Notes under the pieces: model-generated
What the model was told of the DNA's origin: nothing
The model's database searches: none
What the model saw: the letters and a program-made list of their open reading frames with translations, nothing else
Source: a virus
Virus record (IMG/VR): IMGVR_UViG_3300024239_000017
DNA length: 64,000 nucleotides
Direction: 5' to 3' (one strand)
Made by a program: the position numbers and the translations under genes
Shown here: piece by piece, positions 9,101 through 58,785 of the stretch
Numbering within the stretch: the first letter of the stretch is position 1
Layout of the letters: every line of letters starts with the position of its first letter

Positions 9101-12040
9101 TAGCTCGTTTTTACTATTTAATTTATCATATACATGTTTAATATCTGAAGCTGTTGGTTTATAGTCTTCTGACAATTTATCTTCTGTAATTACCTCTTTA
9201 GTTTCTTGTAAAGACTTATTTTTTATATACTCGCCCTCAACATATTTATTAAACAATTGTTTTAATGTATCTCTAGTTAAATCATTAATTGATTTATTTT
9301 TCTTGGCTCTTAATGAACCAAATAAACCATTATATGATTTTGGAGAAAATTCTTGATTAGTTATATTATTTATTAGATCAGAATATGATTTATAAGCGGT
9401 TGTAGCATTGTCATATTGATTAAATAATTTAGATAATAATATCTTATCATTTGGACTTAATTCTAATCCTTGTATAGCTTTATTTAAGTCGTTTACTTCA
9501 TTATCAAAATTATCTAAATCTATTCTACTAGCATAACCAGTCTTACCCATTTTTGAGTAGAAATTATCTAATATTGTTTTTTCTAACATAGATAATTTTT
9601 CTGATGCTTTAGATAACTCTTCCTGTGCTAATGCTATATCTCTATTAAGTTTAATTTTTTGTTCTGCTGATTCTGGAGAAACTTCTTTATTATTAAGTTT
9701 CACCATTTTATCTGTAAGTCTACTTATTTTACCCTTTGCTTCACTAACTATTTTGTTTAGATTGAAATAATTTTCTCTTTCTAAATTAGTCATATTTTTT
9801 AAAGCAGTTATAGCACCAAGTTTTTCAGAAATTTCTTTTCCTGCTAATGTCTGTGATAATTTATTTTGTATAGCATCAAATGTTTGTGATGCAAATCTTT
9901 CATTAAATTTAGACATTGCTGTTGAGAAAGCTAAAGCATTTGATAACATTTCTCCGTTTACTTGAACAGTTTTATCACCAACTTTAATATCTGATAAACC
10001 TGCTGTATTATTTCCAAAAATATATCTTCCAGCTTTTAAAGCATTACCATAATCATCTGATAATTCATTTATATACTGAATTTGTTCATTTTTGTAATCT
10101 TCCACTTCTGATAAATCAAGACCTGTATTATCTGCTATGACTTGTGGATCTATACCTTTTATGGTATCTACCATATTTTTTACAAATACCTCTTCTTTTC
10201 CTATACTATGATATGCGTCAAGCATTGACACCATTGTCTGAGCTTGTAAAGAAGCTTGAAGTAATTTATCCTCACTATTTTCCGCTTTACTTAATTTTTC
10301 ACTAAGTGCTTGAAATCTATTAGCGTGAGAAAATAATGCTGTAGTCCACTCATTAGTGTACTGGTTAGATGAAATTTCATTAAAGAACTTATCACCTTTA
10401 TTATAAACTTCCGCTATTTTTTCTTGCGTTTTATATTGTTTAGAAACAGTTTCATTACCTGTTACAGTTCCTACTCCGCCCATAAGTCCACCTATTAGTG
10501 CACCTATTATTACTTCCTCCCTACCTTCTTTTGTGCCAAACTGATCTTTCATGGCCTTACTAAAGGCATCTATGTAGTTTGATGTGACATTTGTATATTT
10601 TGGATCATAAGAACTGGCAACATAATTTTTATATGTATTACTGGCTACACCTTGCATTCCCTCTTCATATACACCCTCTACAAGACCGCCTTTTATAATA
10701 GGTGATGCATAAGCTAATGATTTTTGCAAAAGAGTTGGTTTTAGAGCTTTGTAAATTCCTTCGGAAGTTTTCTCTACACCCATTCCTAGTAATGCGCTAT
10801 TTAATATTTTACCGTTACTAGTTACAGCTTTTGATAATGGATTACTTAAATTTAAAAAATTACCCATCATCATTAAATTAGATGGCATTAATATTGCCAT
10901 ATTAGCAAAAAATACACCATTTGCAGAACTACTTAACTTATCAGAAAATTTGTTTATTTCTTCCTCTGTAGGAGTTGTACCTCTTTCTCTATGAAAATCC
11001 CAAAATTTCTGTTCTGCTTCTTTAGCATAATGTCTCGCTTCAAAACCAGCTTCGTATAAAGGTGATGTTAAAGCAAATCTTGTTTTTACTAACATGTCAC
11101 CCATTTTACCTTTGCTAGCTACTTTAGCTAAATCTTTAGAAGCTGTTTCTCCTAGATTTGACATTATACCTTTAAACCAATTAGCACCTTTACCTATATT
11201 GCTTTCTACTTTTGATGCTACAGTCATTTCAGGTGTAGTCATTAATCTAAGGGCTCTAGCTACTTTATTACCTTTGGATACTAATTCTCCTGTTTTCAAT
11301 GCAGATCTCGCTGCTGTAGAAGATAAACTTACACCACCTGTAAGTGTTGCTAGTATAGCTTCTGCGGCAAGTAATCTAGTAGTAAATTCTGCTCCGCCTA
11401 AAACTTTATCAAATGTTTGTAGATTAAGTCCTAAATTTTGTTCTCTTTCTACTTCATTATAATAATTTTTATAATCGAAATTTGTTTTTGTAGTTAAATC
11501 ATCTACCCATTTCATATAATCATTATCATATATGGCATCAAATCTACCTGATATTGCAGCCGCCCCTATTCCATAAACACTTCCAACTAAATCCAATGGT
11601 GCTTTTGCTGTATTGAAAAATAATCTTTTTACAGGATTCATAAATTTTTCAAAGTCAGTTTGCATTGCTGACAGTCTAGCATCATTATCTACACCATAAA
11701 CATATGATTTATATTTAGGTGTCCATTTAGCTGAATCTAATGCTGATTGTTCATGAGTATCCCTAATATCAATAGTTCTATCAATATCTATTTTATTTTT
11801 ATTTGGAAACGCACTCTCTACTATACTATCAGCGCTTTCACCCAGTTTATTAAAAGAGTCCATTCTTTGTAATGAATCAAACCTAACATTATTGGTGAAC
11901 GCCAATGTTGCTGGATCTGGTACAGCAGGTGCTGTTGGTAGATTATTAAGATCCATTCCGTCTACTTGTGTAGACGGTGGAACTATTGTATCAGTGAAAC
12001 TTGATGTATTTATTTGTGGTAAATAACTATTTGGATCCAT
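6179..12040 (-). CDS. Large internal virion/ejection protein, possible membrane-channel component
   Basis: 1953 aa; hydrophobic Gly/Ala segments (AEAILATLTGGVSL, IIGALIGGLMGGVG), long coiled coils; downstream of muzzle as in crAss-like phages. Confidence 0.65.
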   Translation of the reverse strand: MDPNSYLPQINTSSFTDTIVPPSTQVDGMDLNNLPTAPAVPDPATLAFTNNVRFDSLQRMDSFNKLGESADSIVESAFPNKNKIDIDRTIDIRDTHEQSALDSAKWTPKYKSYVYGVDNDARLSAMQTDFEKFMNPVKRLFFNTAKAPLDLVGSVYGIGAAAISGRFDAIYDNDYMKWVDDLTTKTNFDYKNYYNEVEREQNLGLNLQTFDKVLGGAEFTTRLLAAEAILATLTGGVSLSSTAARSALKTGELVSKGNKVARALRLMTTPEMTVASKVESNIGKGANWFKGIMSNLGETASKDLAKVASKGKMGDMLVKTRFALTSPLYEAGFEARHYAKEAEQKFWDFHRERGTTPTEEEINKFSDKLSSSANGVFFANMAILMPSNLMMMGNFLNLSNPLSKAVTSNGKILNSALLGMGVEKTSEGIYKALKPTLLQKSLAYASPIIKGGLVEGVYEEGMQGVASNTYKNYVASSYDPKYTNVTSNYIDAFSKAMKDQFGTKEGREEVIIGALIGGLMGGVGTVTGNETVSKQYKTQEKIAEVYNKGDKFFNEISSNQYTNEWTTALFSHANRFQALSEKLSKAENSEDKLLQASLQAQTMVSMLDAYHSIGKEEVFVKNMVDTIKGIDPQVIADNTGLDLSEVEDYKNEQIQYINELSDDYGNALKAGRYIFGNNTAGLSDIKVGDKTVQVNGEMLSNALAFSTAMSKFNERFASQTFDAIQNKLSQTLAGKEISEKLGAITALKNMTNLERENYFNLNKIVSEAKGKISRLTDKMVKLNNKEVSPESAEQKIKLNRDIALAQEELSKASEKLSMLEKTILDNFYSKMGKTGYASRIDLDNFDNEVNDLNKAIQGLELSPNDKILLSKLFNQYDNATTAYKSYSDLINNITNQEFSPKSYNGLFGSLRAKKNKSINDLTRDTLKQLFNKYVEGEYIKNKSLQETKEVITEDKLSEDYKPTASDIKHVYDKLNSKNELTELEQKYYENHKKLIDNFDKTYTENKTLIIDLKTVQLNYNKVQLSNILNGEFNEELSEKIASIQEQIDDLNEKEVITTDELDPIVEDLNNQIKEIESKIESIENQLVPKQTIEKNISTVKESNYTQYEYIKPNGDVIVGNLEINKGILQIVNEDEIVDIQEETLPLEKVDTSNIKDLKKLEEDDILIEGNEAYINGKLYKVTLRNGTIDNSIFKDKNGNYVVQLQARNGRIISFKGSTADAIVYNHLLNKLENEFTEQKNREIRELAERVLEVEKLYEELISKTEDRNSRISEIDRQNRILESDLKNKLSELEDKKVELVQKEVIRLEEEIARLNGEVDSIAKKIRIEEEIEQLSNDILLGLVDDNVSATKKLTLLKMELASIKNPVSEFDPNSSPYEQLKWVVENSYESDFTDVETLANIGKPEQEDIDELIELSNKKNRNSTDKKRLAVLREKLSPFNIVNNLFIEGVSLLDVINLYNQLKNIKESSEQQDIETSEQQLNSLIHQVENVELDEGYRSEKTGLVYDGAYIKKRRDRYELSHIKLSSILNSALQNGLTPEIVVYEIDSNGNKNILEKIDINDENVEYVSEIYEGKNNIKVNLSEDNYLVKNINETAFSIEGNIDTFLSLLGLKAYAITGQPSSYVLLYSTNSDGTLSPKESEFTVTSDGTQIMFDKEALNSLKSGDEVTLEFDPNNDYNQGLSSTEYESKGVIYVKHNGKLVQILKGTDNTTSKQWAELKALRKKVIKNPTKTYSIKVDKSYLGLPIIQLTSDSKPIENNIDESKVVSYGYVDNDGVVKTFKGDIKIDNDQYIRPLTKSGKKSPIVVFKYGNNNIAFPINVKPENVDLDADVDNIVNDSISKEAKFFKLNALLDTYGLLNESTAVTSENYNLNSIKNTLSNVYDTIDISSEEELLKSDRTIYINMEDPFMSNKLVFKLGDNINEATKDIPEKAVSSISTVDMKGIFESEDNMC

Positions 12041-44738: not shown

Positions 44739-47378
44739 TTAATATTTAGAGAACCCTTTTGTATTTGTTAAACCTCTAGTTACTTTATATTTATTATCTT
44801 TTTTTGTTTCTTTGTTAGGATCTCTAGGCTTTTTTCTATTTTTTATATACTGGTATGTTCTATCATAATATGTTGCTAATGTTAATGCTAGTCCAAAACT
44901 TCTAATTCTATCCGCGTTTTTACCTTTTTTGTATCTGTATAACTCTTCCAGTAACATTTCGGCATTAATTCTATCTACGCCAGATAAATCTTGAATATCT
45001 CCTATAACTATATTTTCTTCTTTAGTATATCTAACTATCTTTTGGTTAAGATGGTATATATTATGATCTGTTGGGTGCCATCCCCATTTTCTATTTAAAT
45101 TCCTATGCAAGTTATCTTCTGATGCGAGCCCTATGCCTGTAGAAACATGTATATGAAGATCTTCTGGATGATTATCCTCTAAATATTCTATAAATCCATT
45201 ATCTGCGTTTTCATGTAAAAATCTAGCATTATATATTTTCATAAGCATATATAATACTTTATAATAGTCTTTTTTTCTCTCTGGTCTAGAATCATATGTT
45301 GCAACTATTCTATTTGCCCATTCCCCACCTTCATAACCTCTTTTAAAAACTGTTGCTGACATAACAGAGTCTCCGTCTGTTTTATCATGCTTAACGTCGT
45401 CAAATCCTATTACATATAAACCTAATGGTGGTTTTGAATCACTTAATAAAGGATTCTCCATCATCACAACAGGAGCATCTATACTGGCTCCTTTATAAGG
45501 ATAATCGGTTATAATCTTTTCATTAGGAACCATATCTGCATATATTTCTCCATTTAATGAATGTAATCTATATTTCTGACCATTAAGACCGTTTTCCTTT
45601 ATTATTTCTTTTCTTTTTTTACATTCTTGACCTGGGAATATATTTATTTCAGCAGTTGTGTAACAATCCTCTGGATCTAATGGGAACGAGTTTACTTCAC
45701 CAGCTAATAACGTTATGTCCTTTGATACTTTCTCTCTTTTTTCATTGAAAAAGTTCATTCCTTTTTCCCAATCTGTTACTTTAATATCTATATCATTCAG
45801 TTTTGTAAAAGTAGAATCATCTATTTTTATATTACCACTTCTAAGGAATTCACCAAAAGGCTTAGATATTTTATCTGGTGCTTCTAAAGACATTTGAGCA
45901 GGTACAAAAAAACCAAAATCATTTCTTTTCCATGTTATGAAATCTGGATCTACAAATTCTTCTAAGAAATCCCAATCCATAGTTAATATAGAATACATTT
46001 CAGGATTTTTTAACATTAATTCCGCATCAACAGATAATTCCCCTTCACCTGCTGTACCAGATATTAATGGAACAAGTCTCCATTTTCCATTTTCACCACC
46101 TGCAAATGATGGCATCGCTGCTTTCCAAATAGGTATACATTTACCTTTACCTGCTTCATCTAATAAAAATATATCTGGTGTAAATGCCGCTGCTTTTTGA
46201 GAACCTCTTTTTGTTGTTCCTCCCTCTAAATTCACAACAGTCAATTCTCCAAATTTATAAATATCTTGCGCTCTTTTCCCTTTTATACCAAGTGATATAC
46301 CTTGATCTATATCTATGGAATTTGCGTTTACTTTTAAAGCTGGAAACATATTTAAAATAGCATCGTTTGAATAATTAATCAATGCTAATAAATCAGGTAC
46401 TTTTGAAAATCCTTGTATAGTCCCTTGTGCGTTATTTATAGTCCATAAACCATGTAATAGTTTTGATGTCATACCAACACTCTTGGCAAATCTTCTAGAA
46501 CCATATGAAAATACAGCATGTCTTCCATATTCATCAGAGGCTGCTTTTTGATTCATATAATCAAAAAAGAATTCATTGTCCCTAAACTGTGCTACTTTTA
46601 TTGATTTATCGCTACCTTTACCATAAGCTAATTTGAAAATATTTATATGCCAATATAACCAATTTGACAAATGATAACCTCCTATATTTACACCATTTTT
46701 TATCTTGTTAAACTCTTCTTCCCAAAATTGTATTGTTGATTTTTCCTGATCAAAAAAATGTTTTTTAGGGTTATAAGTAGGAATATCCTTTTCTTTCATG
46801 TTTATGAGAAGTTCATTGGATGTGGCGGGATTTATACTTGGAGCTCTAAAATCTATCTCTAATAAATCTGTCTTATCTTTTATTATAGGTATTTCGTTAC
46901 AAAGTTGCTCCCTCATTACAAGAGGGGCTTTAGCATTACCAAAAAATATATCTAATTCTTTTTTATCATTTTCACTAAGATTTAATTTTGATAAACTTAC
47001 TTTTGTCTTAGTTATTAACGCAAATAAGTCCGAATGAAATTCAACATCGGACTCAGATGAGTTGATATGTATAGGAAATAATTTCTTATACTCAACTATT
47101 GTATTTATATGTCTTTCTATTATATCAGAAGTAAATTTTAAAAAATCTATTACTTTTTTATTATTAATATCGTCTTTAATATCTTCTTTAAATTTCTCAA
47201 TTCCTTTTGTTATTGTTGATATTATAGATACTTCTGTTTGTAGTTTTGATGATTCTAATTTATTTTTAGTTTTATTATATTTTACGTCATCAAACCAATA
47301 ATTTAAATCTAAAAAGTTTTTATAATTTTCAAACTCTTCTTTATACATAGAAAGAATTATTTTTCCTTCTTCTGTCAT
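44739..47378 (-). CDS. terL: Terminase large subunit
   Basis: GSRRFAKS Walker A, FLLDEAGK Walker B, GTAG motif III, YVIGFDD and NADRI nuclease motifs. Confidence 0.9.
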   Translation of the reverse strand: MTEEGKIILSMYKEEFENYKNFLDLNYWFDDVKYNKTKNKLESSKLQTEVSIISTITKGIEKFKEDIKDDINNKKVIDFLKFTSDIIERHINTIVEYKKLFPIHINSSESDVEFHSDLFALITKTKVSLSKLNLSENDKKELDIFFGNAKAPLVMREQLCNEIPIIKDKTDLLEIDFRAPSINPATSNELLINMKEKDIPTYNPKKHFFDQEKSTIQFWEEEFNKIKNGVNIGGYHLSNWLYWHINIFKLAYGKGSDKSIKVAQFRDNEFFFDYMNQKAASDEYGRHAVFSYGSRRFAKSVGMTSKLLHGLWTINNAQGTIQGFSKVPDLLALINYSNDAILNMFPALKVNANSIDIDQGISLGIKGKRAQDIYKFGELTVVNLEGGTTKRGSQKAAAFTPDIFLLDEAGKGKCIPIWKAAMPSFAGGENGKWRLVPLISGTAGEGELSVDAELMLKNPEMYSILTMDWDFLEEFVDPDFITWKRNDFGFFVPAQMSLEAPDKISKPFGEFLRSGNIKIDDSTFTKLNDIDIKVTDWEKGMNFFNEKREKVSKDITLLAGEVNSFPLDPEDCYTTAEINIFPGQECKKRKEIIKENGLNGQKYRLHSLNGEIYADMVPNEKIITDYPYKGASIDAPVVMMENPLLSDSKPPLGLYVIGFDDVKHDKTDGDSVMSATVFKRGYEGGEWANRIVATYDSRPERKKDYYKVLYMLMKIYNARFLHENADNGFIEYLEDNHPEDLHIHVSTGIGLASEDNLHRNLNRKWGWHPTDHNIYHLNQKIVRYTKEENIVIGDIQDLSGVDRINAEMLLEELYRYKKGKNADRIRSFGLALTLATYYDRTYQYIKNRKKPRDPNKETKKDNKYKVTRGLTNTKGFSKY

Positions 47379-48390: not shown

Positions 48391-48657
48391 TTAAATATTT
48401 TCCCATTTATTTATTACACATTTCTCTCTAATTTCTGATGCTTTAGCTTTTATTTCACAGCCACATAAAGTGCAGAATGGATTGAAAAAATTTAAAAAAT
48501 ATAATATTTTTTCTTTGAAAGTTTTATCTTTTTTATTTTTTGAGTTAAAAACACATCCTTCACATGTTTTCAATCTTTTTACATACCATTCTTCATTTTT
48601 CATCGCATATTTTCCATATACTTTTGAAACTATTATTGTTTTAATTTTGTTAATCAT
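48391..48657 (-). CDS. Small Cys-rich Zn-finger-like protein
   Basis: RLKTCEGC..CTLCGCEIKAK..CVINKW. Confidence 0.65.
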   Translation of the reverse strand: MINKIKTIIVSKVYGKYAMKNEEWYVKRLKTCEGCVFNSKNKKDKTFKEKILYFLNFFNPFCTLCGCEIKAKASEIREKCVINKWENI

Positions 48658-49141
48658 CTTGTATAAAAAATTCTTTTAATTTTTTGTTTTCTGAAAATTC
48701 TCTATCTTCTTCGAAAAAAGCATTGTTTTGTATATCTGCTAATTCCCTTGCTGTATAAAAAGGAGGTTTTTCTTTTAATATTTCTTTTGAATACTTTCTT
48801 TTTGATACACCATACTTCAGTATTATAGGTACTGATTTTTCATGAACGATATATTTACAAACGTCTTTTATATTTGAAATTTCTTTAAGTTTAATTTCTT
48901 TATATTTTTTTAGTCTTTTTGTTCTCATATTCCTTTTCATTTTTGGAACACTTATGTACATTTCACCTAATTTTGGAAATGAAACAGTACATTGAGATGT
49001 TTCATTTGAAATATGATTTAAAAAATCTAACCATATTTTATATGTATTTTTTACATCTTTTATATCAATATTTAACTCTTTAGATACTTCTAATAGTATG
49101 TCTGAGTCTAGTACTACTTTAAGTTTTTTTGGAAACAGCAT
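48650..49141 (-). CDS. HU/IHF-like DNA-binding protein
   Basis: ILLEVSKELNIDIKDVK..VSFPKLGEMYI. Confidence 0.6.
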   Translation of the reverse strand: MLFPKKLKVVLDSDILLEVSKELNIDIKDVKNTYKIWLDFLNHISNETSQCTVSFPKLGEMYISVPKMKRNMRTKRLKKYKEIKLKEISNIKDVCKYIVHEKSVPIILKYGVSKRKYSKEILKEKPPFYTARELADIQNNAFFEEDREFSENKKLKEFFIQDD

Positions 49142-49553
49142 GTCTCATAGTTTTACCTATTTTATCTAAAAATTTATTCTCACCAAAATCTATTATGAAA
49201 GATTTTACACCATCTTTTGACTCTATAAGTGTTTTAATATCGTTAAGTTCTGTACTTAATAACGTTATATTCATATTATTTGATGAAGTTTTTAAAAGTT
49301 TCTTTATTTTTCTCTTTCCAATTTTACCCTGTCGCAAATATGATAAATTTGTAGTTAATGATTTTTCAGATATTTTTAAATTCTTACATATTATTTCTTT
49401 TGTTTTTTTACTATAATCATGTCTGATTAAATATATTAATATCTTTATTTGGGTTTGTGTAAGACCCCACTGCTCTACAGTATTATATAAAGATATTAAA
49501 GAGTAATATAAATCAAATTCAGTATCGTATTTTTTACTTATAGGTATAATCAT
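49119..49553 (-). CDS. Winged-HTH putative transcription regulator
   Basis: LTQTQIKILIYL..KEIICKNLKISEKSLTTNLSYLRQ. Confidence 0.6.
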   Translation of the reverse strand: MIIPISKKYDTEFDLYYSLISLYNTVEQWGLTQTQIKILIYLIRHDYSKKTKEIICKNLKISEKSLTTNLSYLRQGKIGKRKIKKLLKTSSNNMNITLLSTELNDIKTLIESKDGVKSFIIDFGENKFLDKIGKTMRHAVSKKT

Positions 49554-49566
49554 CTATTTATTTTTA

Positions 49567-49600
49567 TGCAAATATAAAAAAATTTTTTGACATATGCAAA
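49567..49600 (-). promoter_or_regulatory. Conserved-spacer promoter (GCATATGTC class), leftward
   Basis: Minus strand TTTGCATATGTCAAAAAATTTTTTTATATTTGCA. Confidence 0.85.
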
Positions 49601-49642
49601 TATATTAAAAAAATTTTAATATTAATTTTTAAATTAACATTT

Positions 49643-49675
49643 TTTGATATTATAAAATATTTATATATATTTGCA
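49643..49675 (+). promoter_or_regulatory. Rightward promoter
   Basis: TTTG-N19-TATATTTGCA. Confidence 0.7.
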
Positions 49676-49677
49676 AA

Positions 49678-49765
49678 ATGTAAATGAGAAGACAATTAAA
49701 ATATACATATAATAGCAACTTGAACTACTCTCTCATTTATTTATTTGTTCTTGTTGCTATTTTTA
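49678..49765 (+). ncRNA. Candidate ~88-nt small RNA or attenuator
   Basis: Lies between a promoter and a terminator (aatagcaac/gttgctatt plus U run); taaatgaga pairs with tctcattta in the loop. Confidence 0.45.
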
Positions 49766-49799
49766 TTTGCATATGTCAAAAATTTTTTGTATGTTTGCA
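49766..49799 (+). promoter_or_regulatory. Conserved-spacer promoter (GCATATGTC class)
   Basis: TTTGCATATGTCAAAAATTTTTTGTATGTTTGCA. Confidence 0.85.
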
Positions 49800-49801
49800 A
49801 A

Positions 49802-50350
49802 AATTTTATAGCAAATCATAAAATTATATAAAGTACTAACCGTTACTATTTATGATATTGACGGCAACGAATACAACATCGTGTAAAAGTGTTCCCGACC
49901 ATTAGGGATTTGACTAATTGTAGCAACGTAATGGTATTTTTTTTAAATTAGATATTTAGCAGTAACGGCATGGAAACGTAAACAAAGGCACGACTTATAT
50001 ATCTAATGAGTATATGGAGGGGGAAAAATTAACCACAGCGAATATACTCTTATCCGAAAGCTGGGGAAAGGTCGGCAGGTAGTTCTTAATTCATTATACC
50101 TGAGTATCTAGAATAATACTAAAAAAGATGAATAGCATACAGATTGTCTAGAATCTATAGGTGCACCAAAATAGTTGGTTAGAACATTCCTAAATTACGC
50201 GTGTACAATGTTACACTGCTGGAAAATCAATAGGTTTTCCTTTAGGGAGTTCTATACCCGTAACGTTTATAAATACCTATTAATTTAGATGTTTATATAC
50301 TTAATATTTATTAAATAGTAAGTGTTTATAAATAGGTAATTTATTTAAAC
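49802..50350 (+). ncRNA. Candidate large structured non-coding RNA (~550 nt) or structured groEL leader
   Basis: No long ORF, richer in G/C than flanks, at least 12 complementary stems with G-U pairs favouring the + strand, loop-loop pairing. Confidence 0.6.
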
Positions 50351-50382
50351 TATACATCGCGCGAGAGAGAAAATAAATAGAT

Positions 50383-51891
50383 ATGATAGTAAAAGGAAAA
50401 GAAGCACAAGAAAAGTTATTAGAAGGTATTAATGAAACAGTTGATGTTGTAAAGACAACATTGGGAAGTAAAGGTAAAACTGTACTAATCCAGGATAAAT
50501 ACGGATTAGGTTTTAATGTTACAAAAGACGGAGTTACAGTTGCGGAAGCAACAACTTTTGAAGATGATTATTTGAATATTGGATCTGAATTTGTGAAACA
50601 TGCTGCTAAAAAAACAGTAGACGAGGCTGGAGATGGTACGACTACAACATCAATACTTACACAATCAATGTGTAATAACATTTTTAAAGAGATAGAATTA
50701 GGTAAAAATCAAAATGATTTAATTAAAGATTTAAAATACGATTTAAACACAGTAATTGATTATATAAAAAATAATTCTAAGAAAATAGAAAGTACAGACG
50801 ATATTAAAAATATCGCTATAATATCATCTAATAACGACACAGAAATATCAAGTATAATAAAAGATATTTATGATAAAACAAATTTTGACGTAGTTATAGA
50901 TGTTGTTGAAACAGATGATACAGTCACTAGTTATGAAATAGTAAAAGGATTTACTATACATGATACAGGTTATTCATCAAGACAATTTATAAATAATTTT
51001 GATAAAGGTAGGGTAGAATATTCTAATCCAAGAGTATATATTAACAACGGTAAGATAAAAAGCATTACACCAGAGTTATTTGAGTTACTTGGAATGCAAC
51101 AAGATAAGAACAGTGAAAATTTCAGACCATTAGTGTTGATTGTGGAAGATATTGAAGAAATGGCTTTAAGGGAAATAGTATCGGCTTATGGAGCTGGAGC
51201 TTTATCAGATCTGGTTGTTGTTCAAAGTAATCTAATTTTTAATGATAGAAAGAATTCATTTTTAGACGCTTCTATATTTTTAGGAAATGATTATTCTGAA
51301 AACAAGTTTTCTAATGAAGGTGAATGTGAAAAAATAGTTATTGAAAAAGATAGAGTAACATTTATAAACGGTAAAGGTTCTAATATTGAAAAACATATTG
51401 AAAAATTAAAAGAAGAATATAAAGAAAATAATAAAGTATCTTTAAAAAATAGAATATTTGCTTTAGAATCAAACGCTGCTATTATTAAAGTTGGTGGAAA
51501 ATTAATTACAGAAATATCAGAAAAAAAAGATAGAGTTGACGATGCTGTATCTGCTGTTAAATCAGCTATAGAAGAAGGTTATTTACCAGGTGGGTCAAGC
51601 ACACTGCTTTTCGCTAAAAAAGACCTATCTCTTAAGACTGATATAATGTCTGAATCATTACTTTCGTGCTATAAACAATTAATGATTAATGCAGGTTTGG
51701 AACCTTTCTTTTATTTAAAAGACATATACAACGAAGGATTTGGATTTGGGTTTAATCTTAATAATGAATTAGTTTCAAACATGTATGAAGATGGTATATA
51801 TGATTCTACTAAAGTATTAAGAGTATCATTGGAAAATGCTGTACACACAGCTTGTACATTTGCTTTAATAAATTCACTTATAATAAAATAA
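50383..51891 (+). CDS. groEL: Phage chaperonin GroEL
   Basis: TTLGSKG, TKDGVTVA, AGDGTTT, KKDRVDDA, EEGYLPGG; lacks the GGM tail. Confidence 0.95.
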   Translation: MIVKGKEAQEKLLEGINETVDVVKTTLGSKGKTVLIQDKYGLGFNVTKDGVTVAEATTFEDDYLNIGSEFVKHAAKKTVDEAGDGTTTTSILTQSMCNNIFKEIELGKNQNDLIKDLKYDLNTVIDYIKNNSKKIESTDDIKNIAIISSNNDTEISSIIKDIYDKTNFDVVIDVVETDDTVTSYEIVKGFTIHDTGYSSRQFINNFDKGRVEYSNPRVYINNGKIKSITPELFELLGMQQDKNSENFRPLVLIVEDIEEMALREIVSAYGAGALSDLVVVQSNLIFNDRKNSFLDASIFLGNDYSENKFSNEGECEKIVIEKDRVTFINGKGSNIEKHIEKLKEEYKENNKVSLKNRIFALESNAAIIKVGGKLITEISEKKDRVDDAVSAVKSAIEEGYLPGGSSTLLFAKKDLSLKTDIMSESLLSCYKQLMINAGLEPFFYLKDIYNEGFGFGFNLNNELVSNMYEDGIYDSTKVLRVSLENAVHTACTFALINSLIIK

Positions 51892-52667: not shown

Positions 52668-52700
52668 TTGTATATGTCAAAAATTTTTCGTATGTTTGCA
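52668..52700 (+). promoter_or_regulatory. Conserved-spacer promoter
   Basis: TTGTATATGTCAAAAATTTTTCGTATGTTTGCA. Confidence 0.85.
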
Positions 52701-52701
52701 T

Positions 52702-54141
52702 ATGTTTAAGTTAAGAGAATATCAAGAAAAAGGAAAGAAGGATATAGAGGATTTTATATTTAATTCAAGCCATAAAAAAGGTATAGTAGTAAAACCTGTT
52801 GGTTCTGGTAAAGCCTTGGATACAGCTATTATAGCAGAGATGGTAAATGAGGATATATTGGTATTACAACCCAATATAGAATTATTAGAACAAAATATAG
52901 AAAAAGCTAGAGCATTTGGTTTAGATCCTAGTATTTATTCTGCATCTGCAAATAAAAAACAAGTTTCAAATATAACCTATGCAACACCATTATCTGTAAT
53001 ATCTGAACCAGACTTATTCAAAAATAAGAAAATAGTAGTAGTAGATGAATGTCATCTTAATATGAGCAATACTATGCGTGGTGGTAAGATAAATAAGAGT
53101 GGTAAATTAAATGATTTTTTAAAATATATAAATCCAAAAAAAGTAATAGGTCTTACAGCGTCACCAATACAATTAGTAACAACAGGAATAGGATCAGAGT
53201 TAAAAATGATTAATAGATCCATGAGGTCATTTTGGTATAAAAGTGATATATTTCATGTTACTCAAATAAACGAGATACAAGAAAAATATTGGGCGGATAT
53301 ATCAACGGATATTATAGAAAACAATGTAAACTTTTTGGAAAAAGCTAGGGAAAATAGTCCAGAGTTTACAGATGAAAGTATTATAACTCAATATGAAGAA
53401 TCTAATTTTAAAAATAAAATTATAGAAAACTATAATGATTTATTATATGAGGGAAAAAAGAGTATACTTACATTTGTACCATCTGTTAAACAAGCAATAG
53501 AATTATCAAAAGAAAGTAAAGATTTTGCTGTAGTATATGATAAGACTCCTAAAAAAGAAAGAAAGGCAATAGTTGACGCATTTAAAAGAGGTGATATACC
53601 AATGCTTATAAACTGTATGGTATTTACAGCAGGTTTTGATCATCAAGAATTAGACGGTCTTATAATGGCTAGAGATACAATGAGTTATCAATTATATTAT
53701 CAAATATATGGTAGAATAGTTAGACCTATATATAACAACGGAGATATAATAAAAAAGAAAGCAAAGATAGTAGACCTAACTGGTAATACACTTAGATTTG
53801 GAGATCCTAGAAATATGACCATAGAAAAAAATGATTATACTAATGGTTGGGCTATGTGGAACGGTGATAATTTAATATCAGGTTATCCATTTGGTGATTG
53901 GGAAATGCCACATAGATCTTCATTTATAGGTAAAAATGTTATAAGTACAAATGAACAAATAGAAGATATAACTCTTTCTTTTGGTAAATATAAAGGAAAA
54001 AGTTTAATAGAATCATTTAATTCTAACCCAAATTATTTTGTATGGGTAAGGCAAAAATTTGATTTTTCAAAATCATATAATCAAAAATTGAAAATAGTAT
54101 TAGATAAATTAATAGATAAACATATAGCTCACGGAAAATAA
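52702..54141 (+). CDS. SF2 DExH helicase (YejH/RadD-like) with C-terminal FGKYKG domain; start ATG 52702
   Basis: LREYQ, PVGSGKA, DECH, GLTASP, FTAGFD, QIYGRIVR. Confidence 0.9.
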   Translation: MFKLREYQEKGKKDIEDFIFNSSHKKGIVVKPVGSGKALDTAIIAEMVNEDILVLQPNIELLEQNIEKARAFGLDPSIYSASANKKQVSNITYATPLSVISEPDLFKNKKIVVVDECHLNMSNTMRGGKINKSGKLNDFLKYINPKKVIGLTASPIQLVTTGIGSELKMINRSMRSFWYKSDIFHVTQINEIQEKYWADISTDIIENNVNFLEKARENSPEFTDESIITQYEESNFKNKIIENYNDLLYEGKKSILTFVPSVKQAIELSKESKDFAVVYDKTPKKERKAIVDAFKRGDIPMLINCMVFTAGFDHQELDGLIMARDTMSYQLYYQIYGRIVRPIYNNGDIIKKKAKIVDLTGNTLRFGDPRNMTIEKNDYTNGWAMWNGDNLISGYPFGDWEMPHRSSFIGKNVISTNEQIEDITLSFGKYKGKSLIESFNSNPNYFVWVRQKFDFSKSYNQKLKIVLDKLIDKHIAHGK

Positions 54142-56245: not shown

Positions 56246-56279
56246 TTTGCATATGTCAAAAAATTTTCGTATGTTTGCA
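56246..56279 (+). promoter_or_regulatory. Conserved-spacer promoter
   Basis: TTTGCATATGTCAAAAAATTTTCGTATGTTTGCA. Confidence 0.85.
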
Positions 56280-56297
56280 AAGTCAAAATAATAAAAT

Positions 56298-57275
56298 ATG
56301 TTAAATAAAGAAGAAAGTAAAGAAGAGATATTAGAGTTATATAAAATATTTAAAAGTTCTGATATACTCGCGGAGAAGCTTCAAGAAAAATATGGATTGT
56401 ATGATACTTCAATATCATCATTATCTAGAAAAATAAGAAAATGGTTAGAGTACTATAGAAAAGAAGACAATATAATATTGGCAAAGAAAAATAAATCTCC
56501 TGCTAAAATACTTATTTTTGATATAGAAACTAGTCCAATAATAGGATATTTATGGTCTAAATGGCAGAACGGTATTAATGATGACGATATTATTCAAGAT
56601 TGGTCTATACTATGTTTTTCGGCAAAATGGTTATTTGAAGATGAGATTATATCACATAAATTAACCAAAAAAGAATTGAAAAAACTGGATGATTCTAGAA
56701 TAGTAAAAGAACTTTGGAAATTACTAGATGAAAGTGATATAGTAATAGGTCATAATGGAAAAAGATTTGATATTAAAAAAGCAAATGCAAAATTTATTAA
56801 ATATAGACTAAATTTACCGTCATCATATACAGTAATAGATACTTTATTACACGCAAGAAATAAATTTGCAATAACTTCTAATAAACTAGATTATTTAGGT
56901 GAATATCTAGGTGTTGGTAGAAAAATAGAAACACCTAAAGGAATGTGGAAGAAAGTAATGCAAGGAGATTATAATATGCTAGAAAAAATGGCAGAATATT
57001 GTGATGGAGATGTAAAATTACTTGAAGATGTATATTTAGAAATGAGACCTTATATACAACCGCATCCAAATATAGGTTTATATATAGAAGAGGATGTACA
57101 AGCATGTACGTGCTGTGGTTCAACAAATCTAAAAGATACAAATAAATCATATGTCACAACAGTAAACTCATATCAACTATTAAGATGCGGAGACTGTGGA
57201 AGTTTAATGAGAAGTAGAGTAAGTGATATACCTATAGACAGAAGAAAAAAAATATTAAGCTCTGTTCCACAATAG
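56298..57275 (+). CDS. RNase H-like (DEDD, YprB/RNase_H_2) exonuclease with C-terminal Zn ribbon
   Basis: FDIET, GHNGKRFD, IDTL, SNKLDYL, YCDGDV, CTCCGS..CGDCG. Confidence 0.85.
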   Translation: MLNKEESKEEILELYKIFKSSDILAEKLQEKYGLYDTSISSLSRKIRKWLEYYRKEDNIILAKKNKSPAKILIFDIETSPIIGYLWSKWQNGINDDDIIQDWSILCFSAKWLFEDEIISHKLTKKELKKLDDSRIVKELWKLLDESDIVIGHNGKRFDIKKANAKFIKYRLNLPSSYTVIDTLLHARNKFAITSNKLDYLGEYLGVGRKIETPKGMWKKVMQGDYNMLEKMAEYCDGDVKLLEDVYLEMRPYIQPHPNIGLYIEEDVQACTCCGSTNLKDTNKSYVTTVNSYQLLRCGDCGSLMRSRVSDIPIDRRKKILSSVPQ

Positions 57276-58204: not shown

Positions 58205-58237
58205 TTGCATATGTCAAAAATTTTTCGTATGTTTGCA
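58205..58237 (+). promoter_or_regulatory. Conserved-spacer promoter
   Basis: TTGCATATGTCAAAAATTTTTCGTATGTTTGCA. Confidence 0.85.
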
Positions 58238-58254
58238 CTATAAAAATAGAATAA

Positions 58255-58785
58255 ATGAATTATAAAGAATTTCAAGAAAAATCAATTAGAACATTAGCAA
58301 GATTAGATTCTAATAAAAGTGATTTAGCACATATGGTGCTAGGAATATGCACTGAAATAAGTGAGTTAGAAGAAGCAGTACACAAAGGTGATATTGTAGG
58401 AATAGGTGAAGAATTAGCAGATATGCAGTGGTATATTAGTAATTACAACAACTTATTAAATAGAGAATATGTACAAAACGATAGTTTAAATACTGATGAT
58501 ATTAGTACATTAATTAATTTATTATATTCACAATGTTCTCTTTTACAAGACCTTGTAAAAAAATACTTAGCTTATAATAAACCTATTAACAGTATTACAG
58601 AAACTTCTTTATTGGACAATATTGATAGTACTATATTATCTATTTATAATAAATATGGTATATCTGTTTCTGAGTGTATGGAAAAAAATATTAACAAATT
58701 AAAAGAAAGATACCCTGAAAAATTTGATGAAGATTGTGCTATAAACAGAAATATTATCGAAGAAAGAAGGATTCTAGAGTCTTAA
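58255..58785 (+). CDS. mazG: MazG-like nucleotide pyrophosphohydrolase
   Basis: LGICTEISEL..EELADMQWY..NINKLKERYP. Confidence 0.85.
   Translation: MNYKEFQEKSIRTLARLDSNKSDLAHMVLGICTEISELEEAVHKGDIVGIGEELADMQWYISNYNNLLNREYVQNDSLNTDDISTLINLLYSQCSLLQDLVKKYLAYNKPINSITETSLLDNIDSTILSIYNKYGISVSECMEKNINKLKERYPEKFDEDCAINRNIIEERRILES

Follow-up and report, generated by a model that had tools for sequence, protein, structure and literature searches.

The window (the whole 64,000-nt stretch of phage DNA analysed here) is A+T-rich and densely coding, with genes that are intact in code 11. Its leftward structural block, with the large terminase at 44739-47378, ends at 49553, and the rightward block begins with a GroEL-like gene at 50383, leaving a gap of 829 nt (49554-50382) between the two divergent blocks. 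The terminases closest to that of the window are those of the Cellulophaga phages phi17:2 and phi4:1 (32% identity), the former of which was placed among the Epsilon crAss-like phages by Yutin et al. (PMC7886860). This group has neither a DNA polymerase nor a phage RNA-polymerase block, and its replication machinery is minimal (PMC7886860). The features of the junction are collected in Table 1.

Table 1. Features at the junction of the divergent gene blocks, in window coordinates (slashes separate the two strands of a helix).
Feature	Position	Strand	Basis or remark
Promoter of the RNA	49767..49798	+	Bacteroidota type: TTTG at -33, TAnnTTTG at -7
Structured RNA core, ~460 nt, type A architecture	49805..50265	+	Comparative alignments, ORF-free, raised G+C
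5' hairpin, window-specific: 49816-23/49849-56 around 49833-36/49844-47	49816..49856	+	Dispensable
Hairpin Pb, 49867-70/49879-82, loop ending CAAC	49867..49882	+	Cross-type model: 97% paired, 2 pairs compensatory
H-type pseudoknot PK1	49893..49935	+	Stem 1 = 49893-96/49905-08; loop 49898-49904 pairs with 49929-49935
Small hairpin 49914-16/49921-23 inside PK1	49893..49935	+	
Central helix Pc, 49947-55/49999-50007	49947..50007	+	Type A: 18 pairs, 5 compensatory, 96% paired
Hairpin Pd, 50008-15/50042-49	50008..50120 region	+	Type A alignment
Hairpin Pe, 50054-57/50072-75, conserved G-rich loop	50008..50120 region	+	Type A alignment
Hairpin Pf, 50076-81/50097-102	50008..50120 region	+	Counterpart in type B/C
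Hairpin Pg, 50103-07/50116-20	50008..50120 region	+	Counterpart in type B/C
A-rich conserved joiner with AGAUGAAU, before Ph	50121..50179 region	+	Type A alignment
Hairpin Ph, 50135-38/50161-64 and 50141-45/50152-56	50121..50179 region	+	Type A alignment
Hairpin Pi, 50165-69/50175-79	50121..50179 region	+	Type A alignment
3' domain, outer helix 50180-94/50241-54	50180..50265	+	Type A alignment; type-B model top match, E = 0.13
AT-rich imperfect hairpin region, then U-rich sequence	50265..50350	+	Imperfect inverted repeats
CGCG-plus-purine-tract element, conserved	50356..50372	+	Just before first ORF, in relatives too
GroEL-like phage chaperonin	50383..51891	+	PF00118, E = 7.6e-41; first ORF of transcription unit, outside RNA

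A 32-nt promoter occurs in seven near-identical copies in the window, where none is expected by chance. One copy in the gap faces left (49568-49599) and another faces right (49767-49798), the latter providing the promoter of its own that an earlier note on this DNA had ascribed to the element; to judge from the promoter sequence, transcription would start near 49805. Behind the other rightward copies the start codon follows after 4-20 nt, whereas groEL lies 585 nt behind the copy at 49767-49798, so that ~580 nt, including a structured core of ~460 nt, have been inserted between a standard promoter and the first gene. Moreover, a motif search revealed no promoter between the element and groEL, either in the window or in most relatives, in line with the earlier claim that groEL has no separate promoter, so that the chaperonin operon physically has the RNA as its 5' leader. 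Between the RNA and groEL there is no canonical G+C-rich terminator.

Two further observations concern transcription at and beyond this junction. The promoter copies at 52668-52702, 56247-56298 and 58205-58255 stand only 4-20 nt from start codons, so that the mRNAs behind them would start with a minimal leader or without one. Immediately before the RNA's promoter comes another promoter-like site (49643-49673), with a hairpin (49711-19/49753-61) and a T-run behind it; by eye, a promoter-like sequence with a hairpin and T-run recurs at this place in the relatives L003, L009, L149 and L150, with differing sequences. The unit at 49643-49765 may be a short transcript, or a terminator that shields the RNA's promoter.

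The element had been described as free of ORFs, and neither code 11 nor code 4 opens a frame longer than 45 aa anywhere in the gap 49554-50382, the part 49822-50382 included. Two short ORFs, the longest that touch the element (49805-50265), lie at 49684-49821 (45 aa, over the promoter) and at 50175-50288 (37 aa). A recoded ORF was rejected, the candidate 103-aa frame being opened only by reading through five TAG codons in a window whose genes are intact in code 11. The G+C content is 0.29-0.39 across 49800-50260 against 0.09-0.23 in the flanks, and the sequence folds modestly better than its dinucleotide shuffles (z = -2.74 on the + strand, -2.10 on the - strand). With single-sequence folding this modest, the real support for a predicted structured RNA is the comparative data.

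Public assemblies hold ~70 phage GroEL clusters with 47-98% identity to that of the window, and the contigs of thirteen of these clusters were fetched for comparison. Homologous ORF-free elements, from 420 to ~780 nt long, occupy the same position in at least eleven lineages; they are flanked by the same two divergent blocks of genes in L001-L009, L011, L147-L150 and L153, where GroEL is 57-98% identical, no gene is called inside the element and the motif of the RNA's promoter is kept. Type A members are L001, which is near-identical to the window, L002 and L003 (copies L004 and L005), and type B members are L006 (copy L007), L008, L011, L147, L148 and L153. Other forms are found in L009, in L149, where the 5' domain is missing, and in L150, where the element reaches ~780 nt. 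The operon is present without the element in L010 and L012 (GroEL 54 and 46% identical, respectively). In L010 the corresponding place (2116-2500) is taken by an unlike intergenic region of 385 nt with G-runs and hairpins, which may be another small structured element, unrelated to the RNA. The crAss-like phages rank among the most abundant known phage groups, and the samples that carry the relatives are wastewater, freshwater and subsurface metagenomes; the RNA family belongs to the environmental (wastewater, freshwater) branch of the Epsilon crAss-like phages of Bacteroidota.

In MAFFT alignments of these elements, conserved blocks are separated by insertions and deletions of whole hairpins, a pattern characteristic of a structured RNA rather than a protein or a DNA site. 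The build is modular, with a 5' domain containing PK1, 0-3 hairpin modules, a central domain and a 3' domain. The module of ~32 nt, present in 0-3 tandem copies in relatives and missing from the window, has covarying stems and a conserved 6-7-nt loop. Modules with a GAAUACG-type loop were seen in one to three copies at L147 1590-1682, L148 2105-2168 and L153 2060-2125; as tandem RNA units with a variable copy number, they may be comparable to type III antitoxin repeats or to other decoys. In type B/C a second pseudoknot, PK2, pairs the Pd loop with the strand after Pf in three distinct complementary versions, while type A has hairpin Pe at this position, PK2 being kept in the commoner sub-type. 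For the 3' domain, type B has an extended hairpin, and both the window and L009 have a three-way junction; a 27-nt degenerate motif drawn from the 3' strand of the domain matches both types; this 3' strand, together with its tail, is the most conserved motif of the family. In type B, the 3' tail of the RNA is complementary to the CGCG-purine element.

Additional genes or insertions were observed around groEL in several relatives. An ORF with a T5orf172/MUG113 domain lies between the RNA and groEL in L147 (2019-2504), and L150 has at the same place (1977-2504) a separate promoter copy and, behind it, an ORF for a 175-aa protein that belongs to no known family. The GroEL proteins of L001 (3001-5499), L002 (522-3017) and L003 (5286-7503) have 831-832 aa against 502 aa in the window, and this extra length, together with LAGLIDADG matches, points to an intein-like insertion that the window's GroEL lacks. 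The helicase of L003 also has Hint and LAGLIDADG matches, mobile elements being frequent in the clade.

The RNA is assigned to the + strand on account of G-U pairs in several helices and the direction of the promoter, as had been proposed from the G-U pairs. The stems listed in the earlier note did not all prove equally durable when compared with the relatives. The stem 49816/49849 is present in the window and is not conserved: the 5' hairpin is missing from a variant contig of one RNA-sequencing run, in which 49803 is joined directly to 49866, and the L002 contig starts near there. The stem 49898/49929 is kept with compensatory changes; it is actually the second stem of PK1, with 49893-96/49905-08 as the other, and is preceded by a conserved single strand (49883-49891) directly after Pb. 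Compensatory changes in type A also sustain the stems 49947/49999 (Pc, which encloses a highly conserved interior at 49961-49996), 50054/50072, 50103/50116 and 50141/50152. The stem 50008/50042 holds in the window and in L002 and is rearranged in L003, whereas 50076/50097 is invariant in type A except for one wobble, its counterpart in type B/C being the one that covaries.

Within the 3' domain, the outer helix encloses the hairpin 50202-06/50212-16 and a conserved hairpin at 50221-28/50233-40; the latter, noted before as part of a multibranch domain, is kept with compensatory changes in relatives. The long hairpin proposed at 50265-50350 exists as imperfect inverted repeats, and an AT-rich inverted-repeat spacer stands at this position in four of the five relatives scanned, but its sequence is not conserved; this stretch may serve either as a weak terminator or as a spacer for processing. 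The CGCG-purine element that follows has no counterpart in the short leaders that come after the other promoter copies. As for the 8-bp loop-loop match between 49840-47 and 49961-68, it is real in the window, but by eye the relatives offer only shifted complements of 4-5 bp, and as a conserved contact it is unproven.

Covariation across homologous intergenic regions, the check that the earlier note had named, was strong in each of three independent alignments. The first covered the domain Pd-Ph of type B/C in seven sequences, with a hand-written structure that includes PK2: 91.6% of cells were paired against 75.2 +/- 1.9 in shuffles and 35-49% in slid controls, and 18 of the 26 pairs showed double changes against 8.2 +/- 1.9 in shuffles (0/500) and 2-6 in slid controls. 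In the slid control the partners are shifted by 1-3 columns, which keeps the phylogeny, whereas the shuffle control ignores it. The second alignment comprised the three distinct sequences of type A (window, L002 and L003) and an RNAalifold structure of 89 pairs, which, being derived from the same alignment, favours the structure; 93.5% of cells were paired (shuffles 85.1, slid 36-42%), and double changes occurred in 24 of the 89 pairs (shuffles 10.3 +/- 2.4, slid 2-7).

The third alignment relied on a covariance model of the 5' domain built from type B/C only, without the pseudoknot, and run unfiltered over 92 kb. Its best two matches were in the type A loci, L003 (32.7 bits, E = 9e-6) and the window at 49842-49940 (19.0 bits, E = 0.016, a rough value), both at the expected place and strand. 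With these included, nine sequences had 94.4% of cells paired and double changes in 19 of 24 pairs, against 6.0 +/- 1.7 in shuffles and 2-7 in slid controls. Across the types, six of the seven PK1 pairs show compensatory changes, with 96% paired, though PK1 stood outside the model that made the alignment; furthermore, RNAalifold found the PK1 helix de novo. The covariation of PK1 is the strongest single result of this analysis.

The models of the other domains reached less far across the types. The central-domain model R1, built from type B/C, misses type A, with 10.6 bits (E = 5.9) at the right place in L003 and no match in the window; homology of the central domain across sub-types thus rests on synteny and the MAFFT blocks. 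The type-B model of the 3' domain, R3, ranked window 50214-50247 first in 93 kb with a non-significant E = 0.13, and its scores at other expected sites were likewise non-significant (L149, E = 0.2; L003 and L002, E = 1.7). The models are specific: among 94 other GroEL-bearing phage and bacterial loci (0.5 Mb), the only match was a second copy of a known member.

Expression of the RNA is only hinted at. Pieces of 49866-50366 occur at 99-100% identity in contigs of four metatranscriptome runs from two studies; such RNA-library contigs are proof neither of transcription nor of its strand or ends, and contigs running across promoter copies occur in these libraries as well. There is no shared end point between the two studies. 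The contigs hardly cover groEL and the genes upstream, a gap that carries no weight as to relative abundance. An independent RNA gene calls for a promoter of its own, a defined 3' end and a discrete transcript; of these, the element has the promoter motif, while its 3' end is not marked by a canonical terminator.

Searches for known RNA families gave a consistently negative picture. Rfam 15, whose models include GOLLD, ROOL, OLE, HEARO, raiA, 6S, phi29 pRNA and riboswitches, returned for the whole window at the gathering threshold only three tRNAs far from the element, for 49400-50500 at E <= 10 two chance matches far below threshold, and for seven homologous loci at E <= 1 nothing, which answers the earlier call for an Rfam check of novelty with no family match in the window or in seven relatives. 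ARAGORN likewise found three tRNAs distant from the element and no tmRNA in the window. The previous remark that hallmarks of tmRNA, RNase P and group I introns are lacking agrees with these results. A tmRNA combines a tRNA-like acceptor and T-arm domain with a tag reading frame; the element gives no RF00023 match and has neither a tRNA-like end nor a tag frame. In RNase P RNA, CR-I to CR-V form the long-range P4 helix; here no RNase P model matches, and the words GGGGAAAG and AGAUGAAU, which lie in a local hairpin loop and a joiner, have by eye no complementary P4 partner. Group I introns carry a P3-P7 core with a G-binding site and are flanked by exons; the element gives no RF00028 match, with a promoter rather than an exon upstream and an intact groEL start downstream.

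Further copies were scarce in the databases. No match to the intergenic region was obtained by blastn among 50,697 phage records, motif scans of 185,579 GTDB species genomes did not find the element, and motif scans of IMG/VR found it in only one contig. A GroEL alignment scan of IMG/VR recovered only L011 and L012 from the clade, a single-protein scan none, and IMG/VR scans with the type-A core motif and the 3' motif no new members; among the matches listed in a metagenome scan with the GroEL alignment there were only distant GroELs (<=49% identity). A full-text search of the literature, including the Epsilon crAss-like genome papers, yielded no description of the RNA. The family of large pseudoknotted RNAs is genuine and, within the reach of these tools, new. 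With more than 400 nt, several covarying helices, pseudoknots and conserved loops in a non-coding sequence, the element is a large ornate RNA. What is novel is the RNA family, since a loose category of large phage-borne RNAs without assigned function already exists.

The earlier proposal, a new large structured RNA that has a promoter of its own and is transcribed together with groEL, therefore stands, on the strength of a conserved, covarying, pseudoknotted fold without an Rfam match. As to its role, we consider it somewhat probable that the element gives rise to a stable, trans-acting RNA released from the operon transcript, the representative of a previously undescribed large RNA family. 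The host RNA polymerase would transcribe it as the first part of an early-arm unit that continues into groEL, and termination or processing in the AT-rich spacer would then release it. The released RNA would accumulate as a stable species and act in trans during infection as a compact tertiary fold, serving as a protein- or RNA-binding scaffold, a decoy or a self-assembling particle and not as a groEL switch. The RNA and groEL are separable in the relatives: a second promoter copy follows the RNA in L150, the T5orf172 ORF intervenes in L147, and groEL occurs without the RNA in L010 and L012. A bolder reading, which appears quite possible and which we stop short of calling probable, holds the element to be the first large ornate RNA class of Crassvirales, a stable and compact early RNA acting alone or as an RNP. 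Examples could be a ROOL/GOLLD-like self-assembling particle, a ribozyme, or a decoy against a host factor or defence, and the 0-3 variable hairpin modules would then serve as added sites for binding or as decoys. For type A, the comparison comprises no more than three distinct sequences.

The same transcriptional layout would also suit the main rival, a cis-acting leader, that is, a 5' UTR of the chaperonin operon that steers read-through at the AT-rich hairpin, processing or translation of the first ORF; in one variant it would sense, for example, temperature, a metabolite or a protein, and any stable fragment would be a by-product. We regard this as unlikely, yet as deserving serious attention, for neither a promoter nor a canonical terminator separates the RNA from groEL in the window, the element in every case comes before the arm's first ORF, the conserved CGCG-purine element stands just before that ORF, and the complementarity of the type B 3' tail to it is what a cis-regulator predicts. 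Against this, the complement is absent in type A, L150 has a separate promoter copy behind the RNA, L010 and L012 share the operon layout without the element, and a length of 420-780 nt with two pseudoknots and optional modules goes far beyond known leaders. A role in replication, either as a pre-primer of the ColE1 RNA II type or as an origin mark where the gene arms diverge, seems improbable to us. The element does sit at the strand switch, at the minimum of the local cumulative GC-skew profile (48500-51500), a purine tract follows it, and the Epsilon crAss-like phages have no DNA polymerase and minimal replication machinery (PMC7886860); gene orientation, however, confounds the skew switch, the window showed no DnaA-box-like or iteron repeats, and the element is missing from L010, L012 and csAssE-Sib (a junction of only 54 nt). 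Conserved pseudoknots and loops also point to a folded RNA, not to a hybrid-forming primer. The earlier alternative of a DNA origin or packaging site is unlikely to account for the conserved part, since conservation there concerns strand-specific base pairing, with G-U pairs included, rather than sequence.

Two remaining explanations deny the family either its novelty or its function. A very divergent form of a known large RNA (a group I-like ribozyme, RNase P RNA, tmRNA or GOLLD/ROOL), missed through A+T-rich composition, would fit the pseudoknotted multi-domain build, the short look-alike words AGAUGAAU and the GGGGAAAG loop, and a clade in which mobile elements (inteins, the T5orf172 ORF) are common. 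It is nevertheless very unlikely, given eight sequences without an Rfam match at permissive thresholds, the lack of a tRNA-like end, tag frame or flanking exons, and look-alike words that belong to locally covarying hairpins and not to a P4-type long-range helix. That the element is a fast-evolving spacer without function, its structure a product of A+T-rich palindromes and sequence relatedness, is hardly credible. Such a spacer would agree with a single-sequence folding z of only -2.7 and with a shuffle control that ignores phylogeny, but the slid controls, which keep phylogeny, yield 2-7 double-change pairs against the 18-24 observed, a pseudoknot outside the model covaries, and the element is more conserved than the neighbouring proteins, GroEL being only ~60% identical.

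Known systems resemble the element in part. The comparison with ROOL, GOLLD and OLE drawn in the earlier note is apt for size class and phage setting and does not extend to homology, there being no Rfam match. Like the element, GOLLD (RF01998) and ROOL (RF03087) measure 400-800 nt, are multi-domain and pseudoknotted, are often encoded by phages or prophages, have no assigned function and, as a further stated likeness, occur near stable-RNA genes. Unlike them, the element belongs to Crassvirales of Bacteroidota, sits between a promoter and a chaperonin operon and matches neither in sequence or structure, so that the likeness is one of category, not of homology. Assembly of GOLLD and ROOL into RNA-only cages has recently been shown (PMC12286853).

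The cis-acting phage leaders HK022 put and lambda nut, and large bacterial leaders such as the T-box, likewise stand directly behind an early promoter and ahead of the first genes, with which they are co-transcribed, but they measure 70-300 nt and are always attached to the unit they regulate, while the element has 420-780 nt, optional modules and, in L150, a separate promoter behind it. A riboswitch or leader is characterised by its constant place in the 5' UTR of the regulated gene and by an expression platform (a terminator or start-site sequestration) coupled to a sensor; the element is a 5' UTR in most members, with a promoter copy behind it in L150 and another ORF before groEL in L147. 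ColE1 RNA II shares with the element a structured build, a length of ~550 nt, its own promoter, a place near the presumed replication region and a replicon that depends on the host polymerase; in contrast to ColE1, no origin, RNase H site or counterpart of the antisense RNA I has been identified here, and relatives without the element exist.

In the cultured relative phi17:2, an array of 22 tRNAs occupies the same junction behind the same promoter motif, as the first units opposite the terminase block, although the element itself is not a tRNA. A comparable stable-RNA cluster at the start of the early region is the T4 tRNA cluster, which carries the stable RNAs C and D. An ORF-poor stretch of ~690 nt in phi17:2, with one hairpin bearing a similar loop, was considered as an analogue, and this was not established, neither model matching it. 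In the same phage (L151, 9640-11006), copies of the promoter motif were observed at ~9641 and ~10287, T-arm-like segments with weak tmRNA and tRNA-like scores at 9799-9815 and 9855-9935, and a 120-nt unit ending in a strong terminator (~10390-10437), followed by ~570 nt of ORF-poor, G+C-richer sequence before the helicase; these units may represent stable RNAs that the annotation of this cultured phage lacks. In csAssE-Sib, a gut Epsilon phage, the junction measures just 54 nt and lacks the RNA.

To our knowledge, bacterial and phage RNAs of more than 400 nt with a conserved tertiary structure are few, namely rRNA, RNase P, tmRNA, group I and II introns, OLE, GOLLD, ROOL, HEARO and raiA. Each of these large RNAs has proved to be a ribozyme, the core of an RNP or, unexpectedly, an assembly made of RNA only. 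This short list would be extended by a new class that combines two covarying pseudoknots and a modular build with a clear promoter, and the element is a concrete object for cryo-EM. It could also help to probe how phages without polymerases of their own take over their Bacteroidota hosts; if it is a stable early RNA, it could be a key host-takeover factor in phages that depend wholly on host polymerases.
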